Positions 3,953-20,318 of a stretch of DNA of 32,000 nt are shown here, piece after piece (position 1 is the stretch's first letter; each line of letters starts with the position of its first letter). A program made the translations under genes and the position numbers. The notes beneath the pieces are model-generated. The model did no database searches. It was not told where the DNA came from and saw nothing but the letters and a program-made list of their open reading frames with translations. Location of the stretch: positions 2,460,001 to 2,492,000 of the forward strand of contig NC_020304.1 of assembly GCF_000341395.1 (NCBI RefSeq). Direction: 5' to 3'. This stretch comes from Desulfocapsa sulfexigens DSM 10523 (GTDB taxonomy: Bacteria > Desulfobacterota > Desulfobulbia > Desulfobulbales > Desulfocapsaceae).

Positions 3953-4783
3953 TTATTCTTTCTTCAGGAAATCATATGCAGCATTGATTTCTTTCATTTT
4001 TTCTTCGGCTACAGCACGGAATTCCTGGCCCAGGTGGTTCACCTTATCCGGATGATATTTCATGCTGAGTTTCCTGTACGCCTTTTTGATGGCATCCTTG
4101 TCTGCACCGGGACTGAGTCCCAGTACCGCATAATAATGATCCGTGGAGCCCCCCCTTCCTGAACTGCTCTGCTGCTGTCTGCCATACTTGTATTTTGCCT
4201 CGATGGTTCTTTTGTCATATTCCTTGATTTGCAGATAATCAGCAATATCCCGGGCTACCTTCAATTCTGCCTCGGGTACCTGTGTCTTGGTATAGAGCAC
4301 CTGATAAATGAGTTCAAGAAGAATGAGGCGCGGTTCGTAGGCAAAGGTATTGCGGAATTCCAGAAGCAGGGATTCCATGGATTGTGTTGAGTCAACGGCC
4401 TCTCTAATAAGATCTTTGACCCAGTACATCCTGGTTTGATCATACCGGAGATTCTGCTGGAAAAAACGCTGAATGGTGGAGATTTCTTCTTTGGTTACAG
4501 TACCATCAATCTTGGCAATGCTGATGAGAATTTGAACCAGGAGCCATACAAATCGATTATGGCTCTCCGTCTGAGACGATTCGTATGTGGAAACCTTGCT
4601 TTTAATCCAGTAACTGAATCCCCAGAAAATACCAATAAATATCAGAACAGCTACAATGCCGGAGTAGAGGAGAAAACCAAGAAAGTTAAATAGCCCCGAG
4701 AAGCCACTGGTAAGAAGTATGAAAAGAAGCAGGACAAGAAGGCACCCTCCGCACCCTGGTTGTTCACGTCGTTGGTATTGCAT
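3953..4783 (-). CDS. djlA: DjlA-like membrane-anchored J-domain co-chaperone (TM + TerB-like domain + C-terminal DnaJ domain)
   Basis: N-terminal hydrophobic helices, a central TerB-like region ([20 protein letters not shown]), and a C-terminal J domain ([32 protein letters not shown]) containing the HPD motif. Confidence 0.75.
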
Positions 4784-4806
4784 GGTATTGGAAAATTATA
4801 TAAATA

Positions 4807-5925
4807 TTAGTGGTTGTGGGTTTCGTCACCAAAAAGGGCATTGATAAAGTCATCGGGATTAAAGTCGCGGAGGTCATCGATCTGCTCTCCAATACCGATA
4901 AAACGGATGGGGATTGAAAGCTCGCGGCAAATACAGGCAACAATGCCACCCTTGGCCGTGCCATCAAGTTTGGTGAGTGCAAGGCCGGTGATCCCAACGG
5001 CATCATTAAAAAGCTTTGCCTGGGAAACTGCATTCTGGCCTGTTGTGGCATCGAGCACCAGCAGAATTTCATGCGGGGCACCTTCAAGCCGTTTCCCCAT
5101 GACCCGTTTTATTTTTTTCAACTCTTCCATAAGGTTGACCTGGGTGTGGAGGCGTCCTGCAGTGTCCACAATAACCACGTCGTATTCTTTTGCCACGGCA
5201 AGATCTATGGCGTCAAAGGCTACGGCCGATGGGTCAGCTCCTTCCTGCTGGTGGACAACGGTGACGTCGTTACGCTCTCCCCAGATCTTCAATTGGGCTA
5301 CGGCGGCGGCGCGAAAGGTGTCTGCAGCAACAAGTAGAACAGACTGACCGGCCTGTTTGAACTTTTTGGTGATTTTACCAATCGTTGTGGTTTTTCCAAC
5401 GCCATTCACCCCGACAACCATGATCACAAAAGGTCCCGATTCTGGCCTGACAAGTTCCGCCGGCTGGTCGGACTCCATGAGAAAAGAGCGTAACTTTTCT
5501 TTAAGTACGATTTTCAATTCCTGCGGGTCAGAGAGTGCGTTGCGCTTTACGTTTCTTCTGGCATCATCAAGGAGTTCCATGGTGGTGTTGATACCGAGAT
5601 CCGCAGTGATCAGGATTTCTTCGAGCTCGTCAAAGAGGTCAGCATCGATCTCCTTTCTGCCGAGAAAGAGAGTGTCCATCCGGTGGACAAGTGACTCTTT
5701 GGTCTTGCTGAGGCGTGTGGAGAGGCGCTGAAACATCGTTCCTAATCCAGATGCTTCCTCCTTTTTAACTCCTTCTGTGGCGCTGTCTGACTTTTTGGGT
5801 TCTGTGACAGATGGCAGACACTCCGGGGAGGACAGAACGGTATCCGAGACTATTCCTTTCTCTTTTTCTTTTAGTGTGGCAGCCTCATCATTTTTTGAAA
5901 ATTTCTTTTTGAACCAACCTAGCAT
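4807..5925 (-). CDS. ftsY: Signal recognition particle receptor FtsY
   Basis: 372 aa. Acidic/basic N-terminal region followed by the SRP GTPase NG domain: GVNGVGKTTTIGK (G1), DTAGR (G3), TKLDGTAKGG (G4/G5). Confidence 0.95.
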   Translation of the reverse strand: MLGWFKKKFSKNDEAATLKEKEKGIVSDTVLSSPECLPSVTEPKKSDSATEGVKKEEASGLGTMFQRLSTRLSKTKESLVHRMDTLFLGRKEIDADLFDELEEILITADLGINTTMELLDDARRNVKRNALSDPQELKIVLKEKLRSFLMESDQPAELVRPESGPFVIMVVGVNGVGKTTTIGKITKKFKQAGQSVLLVAADTFRAAAVAQLKIWGERNDVTVVHQQEGADPSAVAFDAIDLAVAKEYDVVIVDTAGRLHTQVNLMEELKKIKRVMGKRLEGAPHEILLVLDATTGQNAVSQAKLFNDAVGITGLALTKLDGTAKGGIVACICRELSIPIRFIGIGEQIDDLRDFNPDDFINALFGDETHNH

Positions 5926-10035: not shown

Positions 10036-11211
10036 TCAGCTTTTTATCTTCATCTTCTTCAGTACTATCTCACCAAATATAAATGCCGCCAGAAAAAAGA
10101 ATATTGCTCCAGTGGTGATCATGATTTCATGGAGACTGGGGCTGTATGGGTAGTATTGGGGGAGATCAACCACATTATACTGATAGTAATGGGGGATCAG
10201 TTGGCCAACTATTACCAGATCATAAAAGAGAACAAATGAACCAACAAGACAGGATATGCTGGCAATGGCCATCGTGGTTCTGTTTTGTACTCCGGCAACA
10301 CCAATAAGAATCAATGGCAGTACAACAGCCAGTCCCACCTCGCCTATCCAGAAATTCAAAAAGAAATTGCCCTGAACCAAGTTATACATAGCCTCAGGAT
10401 TTTTTGTGAATTCAGGAAAAAAACCACCCATAACCTTAATGCCGGTGAAATAGGCAATTGCCAGGAGAAGGACCATAAACAGTCTTCCCGTACTTTGAAT
10501 GGCGAGTTCTTCGGCCCGGTTCATGGGCTTTCCTTTCAGAAGTTTGGCGGCCCAGGTGAACAGGATCACCGCTGCGCAACCACAAAGCGTTGAGAGGGAG
10601 AGGAAATAGAGAGGCATGTAGTTCTCATTCCAGAAGCCTCTTTCGCCAAGAAGAGCCATGTCGGATTTCATGTTTAGATTTCCCATGGTCACCGTGATAA
10701 AGGCGATTATGGCAAAAAATCTCGCCATTTTTTCATTTTTTACCAGTAGGGCGAGAAAGTTAAAGAGCATAAAGATCAGGAAGAGGCTGTATATGGTGGT
10801 CTTCCACCATATATTCGAGGCAGGATGTGGGGATGAGAGTGCATTCAGACCTACCCGCCAGGGGTTCTCCAGTTCCAGAGTGATACACATAAGACCTGTG
10901 GCCATGGTGGCGAGAGACAGGAAGACGGTTCGTGGAATAATAGGTTGAAAAATTTCTATTCTAAAGACCTGTCCCAGAGAGGAAATGATACATAGTCCAG
11001 TGGAGAGGCAGGCAAAGAATACGTAAGGAGTGATAAGAATGCCCCATGGCACTTCTCTTGTCGTTCCAAAGGTATGGTGATGTCCAACCAGCAACGAGTG
11101 GAGGCCAAAAGAAAGGCCTATTATACTGAGTAGCGTGAGTCCTGTAAAAAGGAGTTCAGAAGTGCCGAGTAGTGAAGGTTTTGAATCAAAATTTTGCTCG
11201 ATTGTCATCAT
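10036..11211 (-). CDS. NrfD/PsrC-family integral membrane quinone-interacting subunit
   Basis: 391-aa polytopic membrane protein lying directly downstream of a Tat-exported NrfC-like FeS protein. AGGAAA SD upstream of the ATGATG at 11211. Confidence 0.8.
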   Translation of the reverse strand: MMTIEQNFDSKPSLLGTSELLFTGLTLLSIIGLSFGLHSLLVGHHHTFGTTREVPWGILITPYVFFACLSTGLCIISSLGQVFRIEIFQPIIPRTVFLSLATMATGLMCITLELENPWRVGLNALSSPHPASNIWWKTTIYSLFLIFMLFNFLALLVKNEKMARFFAIIAFITVTMGNLNMKSDMALLGERGFWNENYMPLYFLSLSTLCGCAAVILFTWAAKLLKGKPMNRAEELAIQSTGRLFMVLLLAIAYFTGIKVMGGFFPEFTKNPEAMYNLVQGNFFLNFWIGEVGLAVVLPLILIGVAGVQNRTTMAIASISCLVGSFVLFYDLVIVGQLIPHYYQYNVVDLPQYYPYSPSLHEIMITTGAIFFFLAAFIFGEIVLKKMKIKS

Positions 11212-11261
11212 GCTTTTCCTGTCTGTTAGGGTTCAGTTGCTGGTACGTTTTTTTGTCTGTG

Positions 11262-12023
11262 TCAGCTCTCCACGTAAAAGACATTTGGCAGGGTGTCCAA
11301 TTCAGGACGCAGTACCCAGAACACTTTCCCAGATGTATGGATCAGTTTGTAGGCATGGCTTGTCGGATCGGTGAGATCTCCGAAAACTCTGACATTTGCG
11401 GGACAGGCCGAGGCGCATGCTGTTGTTTTACCGTTGCTCTCCTTGAGTTTGCTGTTGTAGCAGAAGTTACACTTATCAACCGCTCTGATGGCTTCATCAA
11501 AATACCTGGCATTGTAGGGACATGCCGTCATACAGGTCTTGCAGCCAATACACTTGTCGGTATTCATCTGGACAATGCCGTTTACCGTATCTTTGTAGGT
11601 GGCTCTGGTTGGACAGACTCGTACACAGGGGGCATTGTTGCAGTGATTGCAAAGGATTGGCATAAAGACGCGCTCCCTATGATCGGGTGCTACCGGGACA
11701 CTGCGTTCAAGTACTGTTGTGCGGAAGCCATCATCAGGGACTTTGTTGGTGCTGCGACACGCTTCCATGCATTTTTCGCAGCCGATACAATGCTTTTCTC
11801 TGATAACCATTGTGTAGTGCGGGCTGTAGGGAGACTTGGTTGTCAGTATTTTCCCGCCGCTAAGGGCTCCCGTTGCATTATGGGCCGAAGTCAAAGAGAG
11901 AATTGTTCCTCCTAAAAATACACCCGTGATGGAGAGTCCAAGTTGCAGAAAACAGCGCCTCTCTTTTGAGGGAAGATTCTCTGTGCCTTCATTTTTTAAA
12001 TTTTTTAGATTCGTAATCTTCAT
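11262..12023 (-). CDS. Tat-exported 4Fe-4S ferredoxin-type subunit (NrfC/HybA/DsrO-like)
   Basis: Twin-arginine signal (SKERRCFLQLGLSITGVFLGG). Four Cys clusters: CIGCEKCMEAC, CNHCNNAPCVRVCP, CIGCKTCMTACP, CNFC...CASACP. Confidence 0.9.
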   Translation of the reverse strand: MKITNLKNLKNEGTENLPSKERRCFLQLGLSITGVFLGGTILSLTSAHNATGALSGGKILTTKSPYSPHYTMVIREKHCIGCEKCMEACRSTNKVPDDGFRTTVLERSVPVAPDHRERVFMPILCNHCNNAPCVRVCPTRATYKDTVNGIVQMNTDKCIGCKTCMTACPYNARYFDEAIRAVDKCNFCYNSKLKESNGKTTACASACPANVRVFGDLTDPTSHAYKLIHTSGKVFWVLRPELDTLPNVFYVES

Positions 12024-12060
12024 TCGATCCCCTTGGAAGTCAACTATCTCAAGTTATTGT

Positions 12061-13497
12061 TTAAGGCTCATCGTGGCACATGTTACAGTCCTGTCCGATG
12101 ATTTTGCCAAACTTCGTTTCATGTTCATCATCATGGCAGCGGAAGCAACCATAGCCGTCATCTGCATATTGATGTCCAAGATGTTGCCGGTATGTTCCCC
12201 AGGTGACTTTCATTTTTGGCCACACATTGTTCAGATATGCTTCAAGCAGAAAGGAACCTGATACAACTATCTCCTTTTCATGTTCTGCTACGAATTCGTT
12301 TCCATGACGTTTTGCAACATGTTCGAGCAGGTCTTCAACGATTTTTTCCGCTGCTTCATCCCTGCTGGAATATTCTGTTTTGAGAACACTCATACTGTCC
12401 TCACGAATTCCTGCTATTTCAGGGTTTATTTTCCTGGAGTGGAGACCAAAGTCTATTACTTCTTCGAGGCCATCATAGACGTGGGTGGGACGATTATGAC
12501 AGTCGATACAATCCATGGTTCGCCATTTAAGTGCCACTCCCTCTTCGGGCACTTCATCAGCGATTGAATATTCCTCTGTCACTCCACCGGGTCTGGTAAC
12601 CTTTATTTTTCCAATTTTGGTACGTTTCTCGTCAAGAGCCTGATATTCAACCTTTATGTCGTGACTGACATGCCAGTGAATACCTTCAAATTCGGAAGTT
12701 ATAGGGTTGCGCCCACCGATATGCAGGGATATTTCCTGGGTATCTGCATCGGTCTGATTGTCATTAGTGAAACTGATAAATTCTTTAACTCTCTTACCGT
12801 GGAACTTTTCTGGCCAGTGGCATGATTCACAGGTGTCCCGTGCAGGTCGCAGATGCTCAACGGGAGCAGGAATTGGTCTATTGAAATCCCCATCGATAAC
12901 TGCCTTTACCTGACGCAGTCCTGAAAGCTTGGCTTGGACATACCAGTTTGCTCCGGGGCCGATATGACAGGAAACGCAGGATACTTTTGCATGTGGTGAC
13001 CTCTGATAGGCCGTGTATTCTGGATCCATAACCTGATGGCAGACAACGCCACAGAAGTAGGATGAATCGGTAAAGTGGTATCCCTCATAGGCAACCAGAA
13101 TCAGAACAGTGATGTTGACTACTGAGAGAACAATAAAAAGTAAAATACCCTTTCTGTGCTCCTTATCAGCAAGGTCTATTTTCAGATGTTCCGTGTTAAT
13201 GAGGCTGTCTTTAAACCATTTTTTGCGTCGAAAATAGCAGGAGAGCGGGATAAGGCAGAGGCCAAACAGCATCATTGCCGGTAAAAAAAGAAAGGTAAAA
13301 ATAGCAAAATAGTGATTGGCTATTAATCCAGTGAGATGGCCGATGAGACCTAATATGATCAGGGTGATGGATACGGTTGTCAGTCCCACTCCCAAAAATC
13401 CGAGTGGGGTTTTCCAGGTACAGCCGAGTAAACGTTCCCAGGCACCCAGTTCCTGATCTCCTTTCCCGTCTCCGTTGTTCTGTTGCTGATCGCTCAT
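12061..13497 (-). CDS. Membrane-anchored multiheme cytochrome c (three N-terminal TM helices, NapC/NirT-like first heme pair, six heme-binding motifs)
   Basis: Motifs in order: CGVVCH (CX3CH), CVSCH, CESCH, CIDCH, CFRCH, CNMCH. Three hydrophobic helices within the first 150 aa or so. The start ATG overlaps the upstream stop as ATGA. Confidence 0.85.
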   Translation of the reverse strand: MSDQQQNNGDGKGDQELGAWERLLGCTWKTPLGFLGVGLTTVSITLIILGLIGHLTGLIANHYFAIFTFLFLPAMMLFGLCLIPLSCYFRRKKWFKDSLINTEHLKIDLADKEHRKGILLFIVLSVVNITVLILVAYEGYHFTDSSYFCGVVCHQVMDPEYTAYQRSPHAKVSCVSCHIGPGANWYVQAKLSGLRQVKAVIDGDFNRPIPAPVEHLRPARDTCESCHWPEKFHGKRVKEFISFTNDNQTDADTQEISLHIGGRNPITSEFEGIHWHVSHDIKVEYQALDEKRTKIGKIKVTRPGGVTEEYSIADEVPEEGVALKWRTMDCIDCHNRPTHVYDGLEEVIDFGLHSRKINPEIAGIREDSMSVLKTEYSSRDEAAEKIVEDLLEHVAKRHGNEFVAEHEKEIVVSGSFLLEAYLNNVWPKMKVTWGTYRQHLGHQYADDGYGCFRCHDDEHETKFGKIIGQDCNMCHDEP

Positions 13498-14423
13498 ATC
13501 TCTCCTCCATTTAAGCTTTTCTGTAAAATAGCCGCGCTTTTTTCACCATTTTCTATGATTTTATAGAGTATCTTTTTTTGTTCTCCTCCAACTTGTTCAG
13601 CCTCGCAGTAATCTGCCAGCAGTTGTGAATAATTTATGATACCGTTCAGTCTATTTGTGACTTCATTTACAATGGCAGAAAACTCGGTTTCTCTTCTGCT
13701 GGGGACAACAGGGGCTTGCTCGGTACCTTCTGCTGTCAGGAGCAGTTGATTGAAAGAGTGGATTATATTCTGAACTTCGACACTGTTTTTGTGCTCATTC
13801 TTGAGGTGAATCCGGGTTTTGTCCGTCAGGGCCTGGTGGCTTTGTTTCGAAAGAAAAATAAGAGGTTGAACTGACTTTTTGTAAAGAATAATCAGGGTGA
13901 AAGTCGTCAGGAAGATGATTAATCCCATAAGGACCAGAGCTTTTTTTTGATAATACATGATCCTGTTTTTCATTTCTCCGACGACAATCCGATCAAACTG
14001 AAGAAATTGACTGTTAATCTGACGAAGGAGGCCGAGAGTCTTCAGGGCAAGTGTCCTGTCTGCGGTGGTTTCAGCGCTTTTCTTGAGGTGGATGGAGATT
14101 TCTTCAAGATCAATTTTCTTTAAAAAAGAGAGTTTATATTGTGCCGGGATAAGACGGTTATCCAGTAAGGCAATATATCGTGTGTTGAGTTGCTCAACTT
14201 CCCGGGCGGCAGCAAGGAGCTGGGTGGAATTTTCGGAGAGAAGACCTTCGGTGGCCTGTTCGCGAATAGTTGAGTAGAGGAAAATGGTTTTCTCACTGTC
14301 CTCTACGATGGAATTGTAGGTACCCATAAGACGGTTCTGGGAATAGCCAGTAATTATGAGCATGGCAAGGAGCAGTGCTGTCCCAAGAAAGGCGGCTGTG
14401 CTTAAGCTACGCAGCGATCGCAT
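13494..14423 (-). CDS. Two-TM membrane protein with a periplasmic helical sensor-like domain and a C-terminal histidine-kinase DHp-like segment. It lacks the phospho-acceptor His and has no ATPase domain.
   Basis: TM1 AAFLGTALLLAMLIITG; TM2 ALVLMGLIIFLTTFTLIILY. The C-terminal EFSAIVNEVTNRLNGIINYSQLLADY resembles the H-box (compare GVAHEINNPITGIINFAQILLD in the kinase at 19197-20318), but has N where the His should be. The ORF stops about 45 aa later. Confidence 0.6.
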   Translation of the reverse strand: MRSLRSLSTAAFLGTALLLAMLIITGYSQNRLMGTYNSIVEDSEKTIFLYSTIREQATEGLLSENSTQLLAAAREVEQLNTRYIALLDNRLIPAQYKLSFLKKIDLEEISIHLKKSAETTADRTLALKTLGLLRQINSQFLQFDRIVVGEMKNRIMYYQKKALVLMGLIIFLTTFTLIILYKKSVQPLIFLSKQSHQALTDKTRIHLKNEHKNSVEVQNIIHSFNQLLLTAEGTEQAPVVPSRRETEFSAIVNEVTNRLNGIINYSQLLADYCEAEQVGGEQKKILYKIIENGEKSAAILQKSLNGGEI

Positions 14424-16290
14424 TTGTTTCCCGGAGATTTTGGGGCTGACTGCAGTTTTCCTTAACTGTGCAGGTGCTACAGCTTTGTTCTGGATTTGCT
14501 ACGGCTGCAGCCTCCTTTTTCAAGCTGCATTCGACTATGATCTCAAATTCCTCTCCGTCCAGCGTCTCTACCTGAAGGAGAATCTCAGCAAGATTTTTTA
14601 GAAGACACTGTTCCTGTTTCAATATTCGGACGGCCTCTTCATAGCAGCCTGTCAGGAGTTCGTTGACTTCTTTGTCAATTCGTTTTGTTGTTTCCACACC
14701 CATTATAAGACGACTTCCTGCGCCGCCAAGGAACCCACCGCTTTCCACGGCATAGGCCTGTGGTCCCAGGGTATTGCTCATGCCCCATTTGCATATCATA
14801 TCGGTGGCAATTTGAGTGGCTGTCAGAAGATCTCCCTGAGCGCCTGTGGTCTGCTCTTTGAATATAAGTTCTTCGGCTGCACGTCCGCCCATAAGTACTA
14901 TGATCTTAGTACGAAGGTACTCCTTTGAATAGGCAGGGTGGTCACTGATTGGCAGTTGTTGTGTCTGGCCCAGGGCCATGCCTCGTGGGACGATGGTGAT
15001 TTTGTGGAGTGGGTCGGATTTTGGAAGCTTGCTTGCAAGAATTCCATGCCCTGCTTCATGAAAGGCCAATATCTTCCGGTCTTCTTCACTCATCACCAGT
15101 CCCTTACGTTCAATTCCCATAAGGATACGATCACGAGCCCTTTCAAAGTCTTCATTAATTATCTGATCATTGCCTTTTCTGGCGGCCATAAGTGCAGCTT
15201 CATTTACCAGGTTAGCGAGTTCAGCACCGGTGAAGCCGGAGGTTGCCTTGGCGGTATCTTCTAGATTGACTTCCGGGTGCAGGGCAACCTTGTTTCCATA
15301 CACCTCGAGAATCTTCAGTCTTCCCTTCACATCTGGAGCCAGAATATTGATTTGACGATCAAAACGACCGGGACGTTTCAGTGCAGAATCCAGGATGTCG
15401 GGTCTGTTTGTGGCAGCAAGTACGACAATGGTATCTTCTGTGTTGAATCCATCCATCTCAACGAGCAGGGCATTCAGTGTCTGGCCCCGTTCTTCCTGGC
15501 CTCCTGCCGAGGCACCACCTGTTCTACTCGCTCCAACAGCGTCAATCTCATCGATGAAAACAATACACGGAGTGTTCTTCTTTGCTTCTTTGAAGAGATC
15601 CCTCACTCGTGAGGCGCCGACGCCGACAAACATCTCAACAAAATCGGAACCGCTGAAACTGTAGAACGGCACCTTTGCCTCACCTGCAACTGCTTTTGCA
15701 AGCATGGTCTTACCCGTGCCTGGGGGCCCCTGAAGCAGGATTCCCTTGGGAATGGTTGCACCAATCTTTTTGAAATTTTCCGGATATTTGAGAAAGGAAA
15801 CGATCTCTTCGAGTTCTTCTTTTGCCTCTGGAATCCCGGCTATGTCCTTGAAGGTTAGATTTAGATCCTTGCCGTTGAGGCTGATCAGCTTTTCACTGGC
15901 AAATTTGCTTTCTTCTTCTTTTTTAGTACGGTTTGATGACCACCATGTCGCCATGATCAGGAGAACCACAAAAACAGAAAGAATTGTTACGTAAATAATG
16001 GTAAACCTGTCTGCTTTTACAATAACGCGAATGTTTTTACCTTGGATTCTTTCCAGAAATTTACTGACATCCGGCACCGTTGTCACAAAAGTGTGATCCT
16101 CTCGATTGGTGAATGCAACTTTATTACCGGTAAACTCGAGTTTTACGATCTGATCGTTATTTAAATGCTCTATGACTTCGCTGTAATCCTGGCTGGGATG
16201 TCTGTGTTCAATAAACCAGAGTAGTGCCATAAACATGGCCAGGCCGGCAAAGAGAAAGCAGATAAGCATGTTGCGGACAAGAAGAGCCAT
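14407..16290 (-). CDS. ftsH: ATP-dependent zinc metalloprotease FtsH
   Basis: Two TM helices, Walker A GPPGTGKT, Walker B IVFIDEIDA, SRH TNRPDILDSALKRPGRFDR, zinc site HEAGH. The ATG at 16290 has an AAGGA SD, whereas the track start at 16335 is a GTG with no SD. The last 17 nt overlap the next gene. Confidence 0.95.
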   Translation of the reverse strand: MALLVRNMLICFLFAGLAMFMALLWFIEHRHPSQDYSEVIEHLNNDQIVKLEFTGNKVAFTNREDHTFVTTVPDVSKFLERIQGKNIRVIVKADRFTIIYVTILSVFVVLLIMATWWSSNRTKKEEESKFASEKLISLNGKDLNLTFKDIAGIPEAKEELEEIVSFLKYPENFKKIGATIPKGILLQGPPGTGKTMLAKAVAGEAKVPFYSFSGSDFVEMFVGVGASRVRDLFKEAKKNTPCIVFIDEIDAVGASRTGGASAGGQEERGQTLNALLVEMDGFNTEDTIVVLAATNRPDILDSALKRPGRFDRQINILAPDVKGRLKILEVYGNKVALHPEVNLEDTAKATSGFTGAELANLVNEAALMAARKGNDQIINEDFERARDRILMGIERKGLVMSEEDRKILAFHEAGHGILASKLPKSDPLHKITIVPRGMALGQTQQLPISDHPAYSKEYLRTKIIVLMGGRAAEELIFKEQTTGAQGDLLTATQIATDMICKWGMSNTLGPQAYAVESGGFLGGAGSRLIMGVETTKRIDKEVNELLTGCYEEAVRILKQEQCLLKNLAEILLQVETLDGEEFEIIVECSLKKEAAAVANPEQSCSTCTVKENCSQPQNLRETNAIAA

Positions 16291-16496
16291 ATAGCAGAGT
16301 CCTTTAGGTTGCCATAAAAGAATATGGAAAAGCACCAGCTGATAGAGTTTTAACTGCGTGGGCTTTTCCTGAGGGGAGCAGGTGAACCTCGAAATAGTGT
16401 CGGTAATGAAAGGTAGCTATGTTGCCTTACCGTTGACCATCCATGTTAGCCTTTTTATCACAGGTGGTTAAAATGAGGACTTCACTGTAGACACAT

Positions 16497-16521
16497 CCGC
16501 AGGGGTGAAAACCCCCTGCGG
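16497..16521. terminator. GC-rich 9-bp hairpin between the small-protein pair and the ftsH promoter region
   Basis: ccgcagggg (16497-16505) pairs with cccctgcgg (16513-21) across a 7-nt loop. The T-rich run (catatctttt) follows on the plus strand only, so terminator function for the minus-strand small ORFs is uncertain. Confidence 0.35.
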
Positions 16522-16574
16522 CATATCTTTTACTTCTATTCCCTCATTGGTTTTTATTTCCATTCCTGAAGATC

Positions 16575-16799
16575 TTACATACCACTTACAGCTTTGAGCC
16601 AGCCTCCAGCGAGCTGCAGGGGGCCACCTGCCTGAAACATTGCACTGGCAAGACAGGCGATGCTCCAGAGTCCAACAACCCCTGCAAATGCTGCTATACT
16701 TCCGATAATAACCTTGTCTATTTCGGTGGAAACTGAACTCGTCGTACTGTCTTGAACCGTTGATTTACTTTTTTGTTTAGTAAGTACTGTGTCATCCAT
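16575..16799 (-). CDS. Small (74 aa) single-TM protein, paralog 2 of a tandem pair; family not recognised
   Basis: ATG with a GAGAGGAAAG SD. Hydrophilic S/T/K-rich N-terminus, one TM helix (VIIGSIAAFAGVVGLWSIACLASAMF), then the conserved QAGGPLQL..G...KA..GM tail. Aligns without gaps to the upstream ORF. Confidence 0.65.
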   Translation of the reverse strand: MDDTVLTKQKSKSTVQDSTTSSVSTEIDKVIIGSIAAFAGVVGLWSIACLASAMFQAGGPLQLAGGWLKAVSGM

Positions 16800-16836
16800 T
16801 TTTCTTTCCTCTCATTGATGTGTTTGAAAAGTATCG

Positions 16837-17061
16837 TTACATTCCTGCCAGTGCTTTAAAGTAGCTTCCAACAAGTTGCAGGGGGCCACCGGCCTGGAAC
16901 ATGGCACTCATAAGACATGCGACACTCCATAATGCAACAACGCCTGTAAAGGCTGCAACGCTGCCAAGGATCACTTTGTCAATTTCAGCGGAGGCGCTTG
17001 TTGTTGTTTGTTCATGAGTCCTGGCCTGGCCTTTTTGTTTTGTCAGTGTCGCTTCACTCAT
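16837..17061 (-). CDS. Small (74 aa) single-TM protein, paralog 1 of a tandem pair; family not recognised
   Basis: ATG with an AAAGGAG SD 6 nt upstream. Same architecture as 16575-16799. Lies about 50 nt downstream of a sigma-54 promoter. Confidence 0.65.
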   Translation of the reverse strand: MSEATLTKQKGQARTHEQTTTSASAEIDKVILGSVAAFTGVVALWSVACLMSAMFQAGGPLQLVGSYFKALAGM

Positions 17062-17111
17062 GGGGTCTCCTTTGATGGTGTGAGGGGGATGTTCTGTTCT
17101 GCCTCTCTAGT

Positions 17112-17127
17112 TGCATGCTCCGTGCCA
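17112..17127 (-). promoter_or_regulatory. Sigma-54 (RpoN) -24/-12 promoter for the small-protein pair
   Basis: The minus strand reads TGGCACGGAGCATGCA against the consensus TGGCACG-N4-TTGCW. The GG-to-GC spacing is correct and there is a single mismatch (A for the first T of TTGC). The -12 element lies about 50 nt upstream of the ATG at 17061, and a sigma-54 activator gene is immediately upstream. Confidence 0.65.
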
Positions 17128-17196
17128 GAGTTATGAGAGAAACGGGAAAGAAAGACTTCGTTGTGGGGTAAATTCTCGATATTAAAGGGATAAATA

Positions 17197-17217
17197 ATGT
17201 GCCACAATGTGGTGCAT
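17197..17217. promoter_or_regulatory. 21-bp imperfect palindrome with a CCACA-A-TGTGG core; candidate activator or operator site about 90-110 bp upstream of the sigma-54 promoter
   Basis: atgtgCCACAaTGTGGtgcat. The 11-bp core is a perfect palindrome and the outer ATG/CAT also pair. A related CCACA..TGTGG palindrome sits in the kinase promoter at 20421-20442. Confidence 0.4.
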
Positions 17218-17248
17218 AATTGTGTGCCAGGAAAGACATTACTGGTGG

Positions 17249-17319
17249 TGTCCCAAATGTGTACCAGGGGTGTCCCGCCGATGTCCCACAACTGTCCCGG
17301 AAATGTCCCGTTGTGTCCC
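17249..17319. repeat. Array of seven direct hexamer repeats (six TGTCCC, one TGTACC; GGGACA on the gene strand) phased at 11 bp
   Basis: Hexamer starts at 17249, 17260 (TGTACC variant), 17271, 17282, 17293, 17304 and 17314. Spacings are 11, 11, 11, 11, 11 and 10 bp. The spacers between hexamers are not conserved. Confidence 0.85.
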
Positions 17320-17407
17320 TTATTGGAAATGAGATAAAATCTCAAATAGTTAGGGTAAAGGATGCATTGGTGCTAAGAGAGGAGAGAAGGACGGATGATG
17401 GTGTAGA

Positions 17408-19192
17408 CTATTCTTCTATATTATAACGCTGCATTTGTCTGTAGAGGGTGGAGCGGGCTACTCCAAGAAGTTTTGCTGCCTTTACTTTGTTTCCATTTAC
17501 CTGCTTGAGAGCATTGATGATTTTTTCATCTTCCCGTTGATAATGGGGGCTGATGGAGAAGAGTTCAACGGGATGGTCATGGTGATGAGGGAATGGAGGG
17601 GAACTTTGCAATACTGTTTCTTTTTTGGGGGGATTCTGGAGTTCGTCGGGGAGATGTTGTACCAGGAGCATGGGCCCATCACAAAGTACACATGCCCTTT
17701 CCATGACATGTCTTAGTTCCCGGACATTTCCAGGCCATTGGTAACTGGCCATGCATTCAAGCGCCTGGTCGGAAATAGTCGCAATTTTTTTGTTAAGCTG
17801 TTTTCTGAAAATTGTCAGGAAATGGGTAGCAAGCAGTGGGATACCATTGATTCTTTCGCGCAGGGGAGGCAGTCTTACTTCGATAACCTTGAGGCGGTAA
17901 TATAAGTCTTCCCTGAATTTTCCTTCGGAGACCATTTTTTGAAAGTCAACATTAGTGGCAGCGATAATCCTCACATCCACCTTTAAAGGCGTATCCTGGC
18001 CCACCGGGGTGAACGTTTTTTCCTGGAGAAAACGGAGAAGGAGTAACTGGTTCCGCGGCGAGATATCTCCAATTTCATCAAGGAAGAGCGTTCCTCCATC
18101 AGCTTGAAGCAGCATGCCCTCTCTGTCTCGGTCGGCTCCGGTAAAAGCACCCTTACGATGGCCGAAAAGCTCGCTTTCAAGTAAATTTTCGTTTACGGAG
18201 ACGCAGTCTACCTTGATAAGAGGTTTGTCACGTCGTGAACTTTCGGCATGAAGGGCCTCGGCAGCTAGTTCTTTTCCGGTTCCGGATTCACCTGTAATGA
18301 GGACGGCGGTATCGACCTTACCGATGTTTTCGATCATTTTGTAAACTTCCTGCATGGCCCTACTGGAGCCAACACAGCCATGAAATCGGTTCCGGATTTC
18401 ATTGATTTCTCTTGGTTCTTCGAGACTCATATCCCTTGCTACAATAACAACGCCCTGAAATTCATCATCTTCGCCACGCAACGGTGAGGCATTTAAGCTG
18501 ATGATCTTTGTGGAGTCATCGGCAGTATGGCACTCAATAAGATGTTTTCTCACTTCAGTGCCGTCCTGAAGAACTTTGCGGGCATCATTGAGACAGGCCA
18601 TACCGACTTCTTCTGGGAACTGATCGAGATCATAAAGTCCCTCCGCCCCTTTATCCTTGAGCCATTGTTCTGCTGTTTCATTGAGTTGTACAATCTGCAT
18701 ATTGGCGTCTATCGTTATAATTGCATCGCTGACCGAGCGAAAAATTGTCTCAAGGTAACGACGGAATTTTTCATTTTCCCGAAGCAGTCCTTCAGCTTTA
18801 TTTTCAAGAGACCAGTGCAGAAGTGCCTGGCGGGTAAAACGCAGCAGGGTATTCTTGTTTACAGGTTTGGAAATGTAATCAAAGGCGCCGTGTCTGACGG
18901 ATTCAGTAGCTGTTTCAAGGTTAGGGAATCCTGTTATCATCACCACAGGACATTTTATGTTCAGTTCCCTGGTTTTCTTTAGAAGGTCTGTTCCGCAGGG
19001 ACCTATCAGCACAATGTCACTGATAATAAGGTCATATGTGGTGTTTTTAATTGCTTCAATGGCTTGATCAAAAGTTGCTACGGTGTTGACAAATTGATAC
19101 CCTTCAGAGGTAAGAAAAATTTCGAATGTCTGGCGGATAGACTCTTCATCGTCGACAATAAGGATGTGGGCAGAATATAAGTCGTGCTCCAT
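17408..19192 (-). CDS. Sigma-54-dependent response regulator (REC-PAS-AAA+-Fis-type HTH; NtrC family bEBP)
   Basis: REC domain (ILIVDDEES...LIISDIVL...KPV), a central PAS-like region, AAA+ with Walker A GESGTGKE and the sigma-54 contact loop GAFTGA, and a C-terminal HTH (AAKLLGVARSTLYRQMQRY). I prefer the ATG at 19192, 4 nt after the kinase stop, to the track's TTG at 19219. Confidence 0.92.
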   Translation of the reverse strand: MEHDLYSAHILIVDDEESIRQTFEIFLTSEGYQFVNTVATFDQAIEAIKNTTYDLIISDIVLIGPCGTDLLKKTRELNIKCPVVMITGFPNLETATESVRHGAFDYISKPVNKNTLLRFTRQALLHWSLENKAEGLLRENEKFRRYLETIFRSVSDAIITIDANMQIVQLNETAEQWLKDKGAEGLYDLDQFPEEVGMACLNDARKVLQDGTEVRKHLIECHTADDSTKIISLNASPLRGEDDEFQGVVIVARDMSLEEPREINEIRNRFHGCVGSSRAMQEVYKMIENIGKVDTAVLITGESGTGKELAAEALHAESSRRDKPLIKVDCVSVNENLLESELFGHRKGAFTGADRDREGMLLQADGGTLFLDEIGDISPRNQLLLLRFLQEKTFTPVGQDTPLKVDVRIIAATNVDFQKMVSEGKFREDLYYRLKVIEVRLPPLRERINGIPLLATHFLTIFRKQLNKKIATISDQALECMASYQWPGNVRELRHVMERACVLCDGPMLLVQHLPDELQNPPKKETVLQSSPPFPHHHDHPVELFSISPHYQREDEKIINALKQVNGNKVKAAKLLGVARSTLYRQMQRYNIEE

Positions 19193-19196
19193 AAAT

Positions 19197-20318
19197 TCAG
19201 ATCCCTGCTGGAAGTTCAATGATCATTTCTGTGAATTGGTCGAGTATGGAGTTCACCCGCAGGTCACCTCCATGGTCTTTTATGATTCCATAGCTGATGC
19301 TGAGTCCGAGTCCTGTGCCCTCACCAGGAGGTTTCGTGGTGAAGAACGGTTCGAAGAGGCGCTCCAGAAGGGATTGAGGCAGACCGGTTCCATAATCTTT
19401 AATGGTTATGAAGTACACACAGGATTGTCCCTTCTTTTTTTTCTCACAAGTGATTTCAATCTTCTTTTGTGGATTGGGGGAAGGGTATCGGGCGTTTAAG
19501 GCGTAGCGGCTGTTGCTGATAAGGTTAAGAATAACCTGCTGCAGTTGTCTGAAATCGGCAATGATGAAAAAGTCTTTTTTTGGAAAGTCTGTTACTATCC
19601 TGATACCATCCTTGCTCAGTTGATGCCGCACCAGCGTAAGACTTTCTCTGATTACTTCCACAGGATTGACGGGTCCCTGGTCACGACCGTCTGCCCGTGA
19701 AAAAGAGAGCAGGTTGTGGGTGATTGAGGCTATCCGATCACCTTCATGGATAATTTTATGTATGATACTTTCTCCGGTGGCATCAAGCTTGTAGTTATCC
19801 AGCAGTATTTGAGCAAAATTGATGATGCCCGTGATGGGGTTGTTGATCTCATGGGCAACGCCCGCAGCAAGTTCACCAATGGCTGCCAGTTTGGCAGTAC
19901 GTATGGAGTCAACTCGGCGGCTTTCATCCCCGGAGAGTTCCCTGGCGATGAGCATGATTTTATCTATTGTTCCATCGGGCTCTTTAACCGGGGAAATGGT
20001 AAAGGAATATTCACCGAAGAGTCCGGGAAGTCGAGTCTCTTCAACTTTTGGAGAACAGGTCTTGAGAAATTCTTCCAGGGGGCATTTGATATGCGGCCAT
20101 CTGCCACCATGAACAATCTTACAGATCCCCTTGCCAACCACCTCTTTTCTCTCTTTCTTTGCAGCGAGCAGCGTTGCATTGTTTGCCTCAATAATGGTGC
20201 CATCGGGGCTTACAACAATTACAGGATCCTGGATAGCGTTGAAAAGTTGCTCCCAGGTGCCGCCGTGGTGGGTTTCCGATGTGGGGGAATGGTTGGGAGC
20301 AGTCTGCGGGGTGAGCAA
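19197..20318 (-). CDS. Soluble PAS-domain sensor histidine kinase (PAS-HisKA-HATPase_c), TTG start
   Basis: H-box GVAHEINNPITGII, N-box ILNLISNSRYAL, G1 IKDYGTGL, G2 GEGTGLGLSISYGI. No TM segments. The only available in-frame start downstream of the upstream TAA is the TTG at 20318, with GGAG 9 nt upstream. Confidence 0.9.
   Translation of the reverse strand: MLTPQTAPNHSPTSETHHGGTWEQLFNAIQDPVIVVSPDGTIIEANNATLLAAKKERKEVVGKGICKIVHGGRWPHIKCPLEEFLKTCSPKVEETRLPGLFGEYSFTISPVKEPDGTIDKIMLIARELSGDESRRVDSIRTAKLAAIGELAAGVAHEINNPITGIINFAQILLDNYKLDATGESIIHKIIHEGDRIASITHNLLSFSRADGRDQGPVNPVEVIRESLTLVRHQLSKDGIRIVTDFPKKDFFIIADFRQLQQVILNLISNSRYALNARYPSPNPQKKIEITCEKKKKGQSCVYFITIKDYGTGLPQSLLERLFEPFFTTKPPGEGTGLGLSISYGIIKDHGGDLRVNSILDQFTEMIIELPAGI

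Follow-up and report, generated by a model that had tools for sequence, protein, structure and literature searches.

In a 32,000-nt stretch of the Desulfocapsa sulfexigens DSM 10523 chromosome (NC_020304.1, positions 2,460,001 to 2,492,000 of the forward strand; hereafter the window, from whose first nucleotide all positions are counted), we examined a 71-bp array of seven short boxes (17249..17319, minus strand) which lies between the gene of an NtrC-family activator and a sigma-54 promoter. The array is a genuine cis-regulatory element and is deeply conserved. It probably serves as the enhancer (upstream activating sequence, UAS) of this promoter, its boxes acting as half-sites for the helix-turn-helix (HTH) domain, of the HTH_8 family, at the end of the adjacent activator.

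A phased array at enhancer distance from a sigma-54 promoter

On the plus strand the array region reads ggTGTCCCaaatgTGTACCaggggTGTCCCgccgaTGTCCCacaacTGTCCCggaaaTGTCCCgttgTGTCCCtta, with TGTCCC starting at 17249, 17271, 17282, 17293, 17304 and 17314 and the variant TGTACC at 17260; the gene (minus) strand reads the hexamer as GGGACA. Successive units are 11, 11, 11, 11, 11 and 10 bp apart, and the spacers between them (AAATG, AGGGG, GCCGA, ACAAC, GGAAA and GTTG) are mutually unrelated. The first-pass annotation of this DNA had described seven hexamers at just these sites, six of them identical, with 11-bp spacing broken by a single 10 and with unrelated spacers, and the sequence agrees with that description throughout. 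In the window as a whole TGTCCC is not enriched (22 occurrences on both strands, 17.3 expected); six copies are packed into 71 bp of a single strand. When successive exact copies of any hexamer lying 10-12 or 21-23 bp apart were chained, the longest chain in the window had six members, and the longest in each of 300 first-order Markov simulations of 32 kb had two (275 runs) or three (25 runs). The array is non-random. Owing to the differing spacers, Tandem Repeats Finder detected only a part of it (17271-17310, period 11, score 45).

The sigma-54 (-24/-12) promoter, TGGCACGGAGCATGC (17127-17113, minus strand), had likewise been claimed beforehand and is real: it is the sole zero-mismatch match in the window and is conserved in all 30 loci described below. 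The promoter consensus is quoted in PMC2725144. Counted from the T of TGGCAC, the array units start at -127, -138, -149, -160, -171, -182 and -192, in agreement with the 120-190 bp originally estimated. Both in the window and in 29 loci, the array thus stands where a UAS is expected, about 80-200 bp upstream of a TGGCAC-N5-TTGC promoter. Between the two lies an IHF-like element, TATCGAGAATTTA (17169..17181, minus strand), which matches WATCAANNNNTTR at 12 of 13 positions and is situated 54 nt upstream of TGGCAC. Matches of at least 12/13 at -50..-54 from TGGCAC occurred in 11 of the 30 loci, and a positionally conserved A-rich block, aACAAAACAnnnGGTTAc, was visible in most loci when these were stacked on the promoter. 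The element is therefore a candidate DNA-bending site between enhancer and promoter, as judged from its sequence and place.

Conservation in orthologous loci

Using alignments to the 74-aa protein encoded by the first gene downstream of the promoter, a route independent of the array, we fetched 29 loci from Desulfobulbales genomes and metagenome-assembled genomes. Together with the window this makes 30 loci; array counts refer to the 29 loci with enough upstream DNA. The order of kinase, activator, small open reading frame(s) (ORFs), FtsH, the membrane protein P309 and cytochrome is kept across loci. Of the 23 loci that could be judged, 20 have the kinase and activator genes directly upstream; the kinase gene immediately precedes the activator gene in 18 loci whose upstream DNA reaches far enough. 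The FtsH paralogue was syntenic in 27/29 loci, P309 and the cytochrome in most. A promoter of the form TGGCACG-N4-xTGC was present upstream of the small ORF in every one of the 30 loci, at a distance of 65-101 nt in 29 of them and at a greater one in L018.

Absence of the array from orthologous intergenic regions had been named in advance as an outcome that would refute its significance, and this is clearly not what the loci show. GGGACA was present at -230..-100 in 29/29 loci, with 108 copies in total where the remainder of the loci predicts 0.9 (about 119-fold), and was the top hexamer in this interval. Successive copies were most often 11 bp (48 cases), 22 bp (16) or 21 bp (5) apart, and base identity peaked at lags of 11, 22 and 33 bp. 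Counting exact and in-phase one-mismatch boxes, each locus carried three to eight phased boxes, with a mode of five and seven in the window; multiple sites, as expected of a UAS that loads about a hexamer of activator, are thus present throughout. The unit consensus across loci is yGGGACAcTnny.

The boxes are better preserved than the DNA around them. When the window is set against L001, its closest relative, the boxes common to both, six in number, are identical at 36/36 positions, while the spacers match at about half of theirs. Across loci the array was found 120-200 bp upstream of the -24/-12 element, and it kept a constant promoter distance even where the small protein was only 47-54% identical and the flanks could not be aligned. 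Its register relative to the promoter was non-uniform (R = 0.57, n = 29, a statistic that ignores relatedness among the loci).

We also scanned metagenomes for GGGACA-N5-GGGACA-N5-GGGACA, which returned at least 120 stretches. Among the matches listed there were no relatives of the small protein, FtsH, the kinase or other members of the module, and a weak activator match (33% identity, stretch L092) was the sole one of its kind. One of the listed array stretches had a sigma-54-like motif downstream, and most lay in open frames or satellite-like repeats.

Variation in orientation, copy number and sequence

The layout seen in the window, seven copies in a pure head-to-tail arrangement, does not extend to the family as a whole, in which the number of copies varies as given above and exact copies occur on both strands in 13 of 29 loci. 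Mixed arrays typically consist of one or two distal TGTCCC copies and one proximal copy, with a GGGACA core between them (L014, L018, L020, L023, L024 and L026). In addition, an imperfect dyad, GTGTAGC-N3-GGGACA(C), marks the promoter-distal end in about 17-18 of the 29 loci and is absent from the window. Several loci show an alternation of weak and strong boxes, for example GGGACA / GGTACA / GGGACA / GGGACG / GGGACA in L005 and L009; such a 22-bp super-period would suit head-to-tail dimers.

Among 32 in-phase units with one mismatch, 25 changes fell in GGG and seven in ACA, and the AC dinucleotide was changed only once. From this bias it follows that an AC-centred core is recognised. Neighbouring units shared identical 5-nt spacers in 6 of 49 pairs, compared with 2.6% of random pairs, which indicates occasional duplication of units by 11-bp slippage.

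Three loci (L009, L028 and L029) kept the array with no activator gene in the 4 kb upstream. There, the array was preceded by a cytochrome gene, an opposite-strand methyltransferase gene or an integrase gene. The array is therefore tied to the promoter rather than to the 3' end of the activator gene.

The adjacent activator and a possible mode of action

The activator gene (17408..19219, minus strand) ends 88 bp upstream of the array. Its product has a REC-PAS-sigma-54 AAA+-HTH_8 architecture (Pfam matches) and carries the phospho-acceptor context, Walker A and GAFTGA; the window thus encodes, close to the array, an AAA+ protein with GAFTGA and a DNA-binding domain (DBD), as expected of a cognate activator. 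The protein scored below the cut-off of every NCBIfam equivalog (AtoC, NtrC, ZraR, LuxO and others), and therefore represents an unnamed subfamily. At its C-terminus, a proline-rich, variable linker of about 35 residues with many indels precedes the HTH, EDEKIINALKQVNGNKVKAAKLLGVARSTLYRQMQRYNIEE, whose recognition helix, ARSTLYRQ, does not vary among 21 orthologues in the DBD alignment. Genes of enhancer-binding proteins often adjoin their targets (PMC2725144). Because of its position, synteny and invariant recognition helix, the activator appears to be the most likely binder of the array. A soluble PAS-HisKA-HATPase histidine kinase encoded next to it (19197..20318, minus strand; Pfam matches) is its presumed partner.

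The closest solved DBD is the 46-aa domain of Aquifex NtrC1 (4L5E). DBDs that lack helix A (NtrC1, NifA, NtrX) are monomeric without DNA, while the helix A-bearing DBDs of NtrC and NtrC4 dimerise stably (PMC10590331). The DBD of the activator seems to belong to the minimal three-helix type, there being no obvious room for helix A before the HTH. AlphaFold2 run without an alignment on the last 140 residues gave a mean pLDDT (predicted local distance difference test) of 44, and this model was not used with regard to helix A.

From the above we infer the identity of the binder, the binding of one domain per box, the role of IHF and the signal, which together would give the following course of events. 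The sigma-54 promoter would drive the two 74-aa membrane proteins, the FtsH paralogue and the membrane redox genes. Each GGGACA(C) box would be a half-site for one three-helix HTH_8 domain, and the long proline-rich linker would let the domain dock either way, making mirror-image pairs unnecessary. Such a monomeric, tethered domain would account for the head-to-tail layout as well as for the way in which boxes flip from one species to another. With five to seven boxes at 11 bp, the bound domains would lie on approximately one face of the DNA and approximately one ring of protomers would be concentrated there. Phosphorylation of the activator by the partner PAS kinase would then close the AAA+ domains into an active ring, which would be looped onto the closed sigma-54 complex by a bend at the IHF-like element near -54 from TGGCAC (about -80 relative to the start site). 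Going further, one could imagine a linear template on which every subunit of the AAA+ ring, by way of a monomeric three-helix HTH of its own, occupies one of about six phased half-sites, whose orientation would not matter owing to the flexible linker of roughly 35 residues. The DNA, rather than dimerisation of the DBDs, would then set the local stoichiometry and nucleate the ring, and gain or loss of 11-bp units would tune the array in evolution. We put this forward only tentatively and would sooner expect it to fail than to hold.

Several points weigh against the enhancer interpretation or parts of it. The activator gene is not universally adjacent to the array, as the three loci named above demonstrate. 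HTH_8 activators have been described as dimers on palindromes, for which a direct orientation is atypical (PMC11841059, PMC10590331, PMC7175178), and the dyad symmetry customary for UAS sites is missing in the window, where all boxes share the same orientation. The modal copy number is five and not six, so that one ring's worth of sites is reached only if weaker sites are counted. The absence of helix A is read from sequence alone. Finally, the recognition helix is invariant and so is the box, which leaves no covariation of protein and box to be used.

Among known elements, we class the array with the sigma-54 enhancers of the NtrC family. They share with the array several sites lying 100-200 bp upstream of a -24/-12 promoter, a position beside the gene of a REC-AAA+-HTH_8 activator, a 6-bp half-site with starts 11 bp apart (6+5 geometry) and an IHF-like element between enhancer and promoter. 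The NtrC site is TGCACC-N5-GGTGCA; the box TGTCCC/TGTACC resembles its TGCACC half, from which TGTACC differs at one position. Other enhancers of this family include TGT-N10-ACA for NifA and three 18-bp sites for GcsR, and NtrC-family promoters typically have two or three dimer sites, that is, about six protomers. What differs is the arrangement. Instead of two or three separated dyads, the half-sites in the window all point the same way and follow each other contiguously, one per helical turn, and in the array family both orientation and copy number (3-8) vary. The earlier remark that NtrC-type sites are usually inverted repeats accords with the literature, in which dyads are the norm (PMC11841059, PMC10590331), as represented for example by the NmpR site GCGCA-N5-TGCGC (PMC11841059). 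The array counts as a variant UAS because its sites, in the window, lack dyad symmetry.

PilR of Pseudomonas aeruginosa offers another comparison, being a sigma-54 activator encoded beside a small-protein target and having sites with a TGT/GTC core. Reiterated PilR units containing TGTC were reportedly described by Jin et al. in 1994. The sites upstream of pilA comprise NifA-like TGT-N11-AGA/ACA and nearby GTCT elements (PMC6058289, PMC8035640), and the accessible descriptions contain no set of five to seven identical hexamers at an 11-bp period. PilR further differs in having no PAS domain and in its target, a type IV pilin, whereas the 74-aa proteins have no pilin leader.

According to a 2020 review, the structural work on bacterial enhancer-binding proteins was all done without a UAS (PMC7175178). 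The array bears on the part that enhancer DNA plays in the assembly and activity of these proteins. It would represent a natural, conserved enhancer whose half-sites are contiguous, phased, mostly head-to-tail and approximately as numerous as the subunits of a ring, and hence a simple substrate with which to examine if the ring is assembled on a DNA template, how many DBDs engage and whether orientation matters. A template of one box per protomer, if true, would depart as a mode of recognition from the dimer-on-dyad paradigm known for NtrC-family activators.

Alternative explanations

The boxes might instead be coated by a different DNA-binding protein whose gene lies elsewhere (OmpR/PhoB-type, ParR-like ribbon-helix-helix, or a repressor or anti-activator) and which would modulate the promoter, with the activator binding elsewhere or acting from solution. 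We consider this rather unlikely, even though direct repeats are atypical of NtrC-family proteins, head-to-tail repeats of 11 bp are classical for PhoB boxes and parC iterons, and L009, L028 and L029 hold the array with no activator gene upstream. Pho boxes are direct repeats with an 11-bp period (7 conserved and 4 variable positions). They share with the array the head-to-tail layout, a TGTC-containing core and protomers lying on one face, but are bound by winged-helix proteins, overlap the sigma-70 -35 box and usually comprise 2-4 units, whereas the array is situated about 150 bp upstream of a sigma-54 promoter in a module with no winged-helix gene. The parC centromere of plasmid R1 consists of ten 11-bp repeats bound cooperatively by ParR. 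Like iterons and parC, the array has many short direct repeats at an 11-bp period on which a continuous protein array could form; in contrast to them, it is located on a 3.99-Mb chromosome, has no rep or par genes by it and keeps a fixed distance to a sigma-54 promoter. The likeness to OmpR/PhoB boxes or iterons suggested in the first-pass annotation hence holds for the head-to-tail layout at 10-11 bp, but does not extend to the genes, since Pfam/NCBIfam matches and synteny revealed no winged-helix (Trans_reg_C) regulator, rep or par gene in the conserved module.

Further observations speak for the activator and against another binder. There is no alternative conserved repeat which the activator could use, as words derived from GGGACA dominate the enriched hexamers, and the activator possesses a complete HTH_8 with its invariant recognition helix. 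The array stands at enhancer distance and does not cover a sigma-70 -35 box; no sigma-70-like promoter adjoins it. In the open-access literature we found no bacterial regulator with a TGTCCC/GGGACA site, and no direct-repeat sites appear in the Desulfovibrio sigma-54 regulome paper.

As for structural DNA, the GGG tracts could form a G-quadruplex on the gene strand (loops of 7-8 nt), or the array could be an intrinsically bent segment that assists looping. The window does contain six same-strand GGG runs 7-8 nt apart, and 15/29 loci have at least four exact same-strand copies. However, the other 14 loci do not have four tracts on one strand, the loops are longer than the canonical maximum of 7 nt, and GGG takes 25 of the 32 changes while AC is nearly invariant, which is the opposite of what a quadruplex needs. 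This explanation is very unlikely.

The array could also act as RNA. As in the weaker alternative of the first-pass annotation, evenly spaced GGGACA motifs (GGA core) on a minus-strand transcript would titrate a CsrA-like protein, or the array would be a 3' UTR (untranslated region) element; the transcript would come from read-through out of the activator gene. GGA is indeed the core motif of CsrA, and read-through is conceivable, since prediction places no intrinsic minus-strand terminator between the stop codon of the activator (17408) and the array. Nevertheless, a single transcript would lose the motif in the 13 of 29 loci with copies on both strands, and the genes that precede the array in L009, L028 and L029 are unrelated ones or read the other way. 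Copies on both strands and the array's occurrence without the activator gene point to a double-stranded protein site and argue against a CsrA-sponge RNA. Furthermore, folding compared with shuffled sequences gave z = +0.95 with the motifs outside hairpin loops, a scan of 16300-17500 at E<=1 gave no Rfam match, the strict 11-bp period is that of the DNA helix, and ACA is more constrained than GG. The array and the sponge RNAs CsrB/RsmZ have in common repeated GGA-containing motifs, but the array has neither a promoter and terminator of its own, hairpin display, a conserved motif strand nor an Rfam match, and is placed upstream of a promoter. We thus regard an RNA role as extremely improbable.

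Least credible of all is a functionless relic of tandem duplication of an 11-bp unit by slippage, which would account for the identical neighbour spacers (6/49 pairs vs 2.6% of random pairs) but not for the retention of the array at the same promoter distance next to small proteins of 47-54% identity and unalignable flanks, nor for conserved boxes amid drifting spacers, where a neutral repeat would decay uniformly.

Presumed target genes and neighbourhood

The array marks the control region of an uncharacterised, Desulfobulbales-wide membrane/redox module, and the box GGGACAC-N4 can be used as a query for the rest of the regulon in Desulfobulbales genomes. All genes discussed below lie on the minus strand. 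The first target gene, UWK_02213 (16837..17061), encodes a 74-aa single-pass membrane protein, and its neighbour UWK_02212 (16575..16799) a paralogous one of the same length and topology, both assigned by homologue search. For the 74-aa protein, 146 homologues were retrieved, nearly all exactly 74 aa long, with 17 invariant residues, among them those of a C-terminal QAGGPLQL...G motif. One or two tandem copies of the gene are present per orthologous locus, and the family seems to be restricted to Desulfobulbales-like genomes. The protein matched no Pfam or NCBIfam family, and we found no paper on the UWK_0221x genes in the open-access literature.

The next gene (14407..16335) encodes an FtsH-family AAA+/M41 protease paralogue (Pfam/NCBIfam; FtsH_fam 691 bits against a cut-off of 600). 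It is followed by P309 (13494-14423), a 309-aa membrane protein without a Pfam or NCBIfam match and of no known family, a 478-aa NapC/NrfH-like multihaem cytochrome (12061-13497), an NrfC-like 4Fe-4S protein (11262-12023) and an NrfD-like membrane protein (10036-11211), the last three assigned by Pfam/NCBIfam. The FtsH paralogue and the redox genes are co-oriented with the small ORFs. The genes at 10036..14423 probably belong to the same transcription unit as the small ORFs and FtsH, the extent of this operon being deduced from the arrangement of genes. The cytochrome, NrfC-like and NrfD-like products (10036-13497) resemble a quinone-interacting membrane redox complex, and their genes may be under the sigma-54 control of the array.

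P309 was syntenic in 24/29 loci and was missing only where the locus sequence ends. It has two predicted membrane segments, and its C-terminal FSAIVNEVTNRLNGIINYSQLL resembles the H-box of histidine kinases with the histidine replaced. Judging by this motif, P309 could be a membrane-bound pseudo-kinase talking to the soluble kinase or the activator. In the mixed-orientation clade, a paralogous PAS histidine kinase gene replaces that of the cytochrome downstream of P309 (L020 7871-8221, L024 4587-5207, L026 7111-8022); these second kinases are 58-60% identical, and the loci end there.

Minor observations

The array is crossed by several open reading frames, among them 17058-17345 (minus strand) and 17197-17337 (plus strand). 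A coding origin of the array was rejected, because an 11-bp period loses the reading frame and conservation tracks the hexamers and not codons. Two further minus-strand TGGCAC motifs, at 17229-17224 and 17204-17199, were treated as chance occurrences and not as promoters; in the former, TGC is one base too distant for a -12 element, the latter is without a -12 element, and both are unconserved in the closest relative, L001.

The TTG start listed for the activator overlaps the stop codon of the kinase gene by 23 nt (19197-19219), and alignments of its orthologues frequently set in only at residue 9-10. Translation therefore probably starts from the ATG of codon 10 (MEHDLY...).

In L019, a fragment of FtsH (the first approximately 130 aa) and one of the activator HTH (the last 47 aa, 85% identical) occur together at 4470-5066, with the small ORF on one side and the full FtsH gene on the other. 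They look like what a local duplication or rearrangement has left behind.

Finally, a GC-rich hairpin of 9 pairs, CCGCAGGGG-N7-CCCCTGCGG (16497-16521), is located 54 nt past the stop of the second small ORF, ahead of the FtsH gene. Since no T-run follows it on the gene strand, it does not qualify as a canonical terminator; it might serve in processing or stabilisation, or act as a partial terminator by which the ratio of small proteins to FtsH is set.

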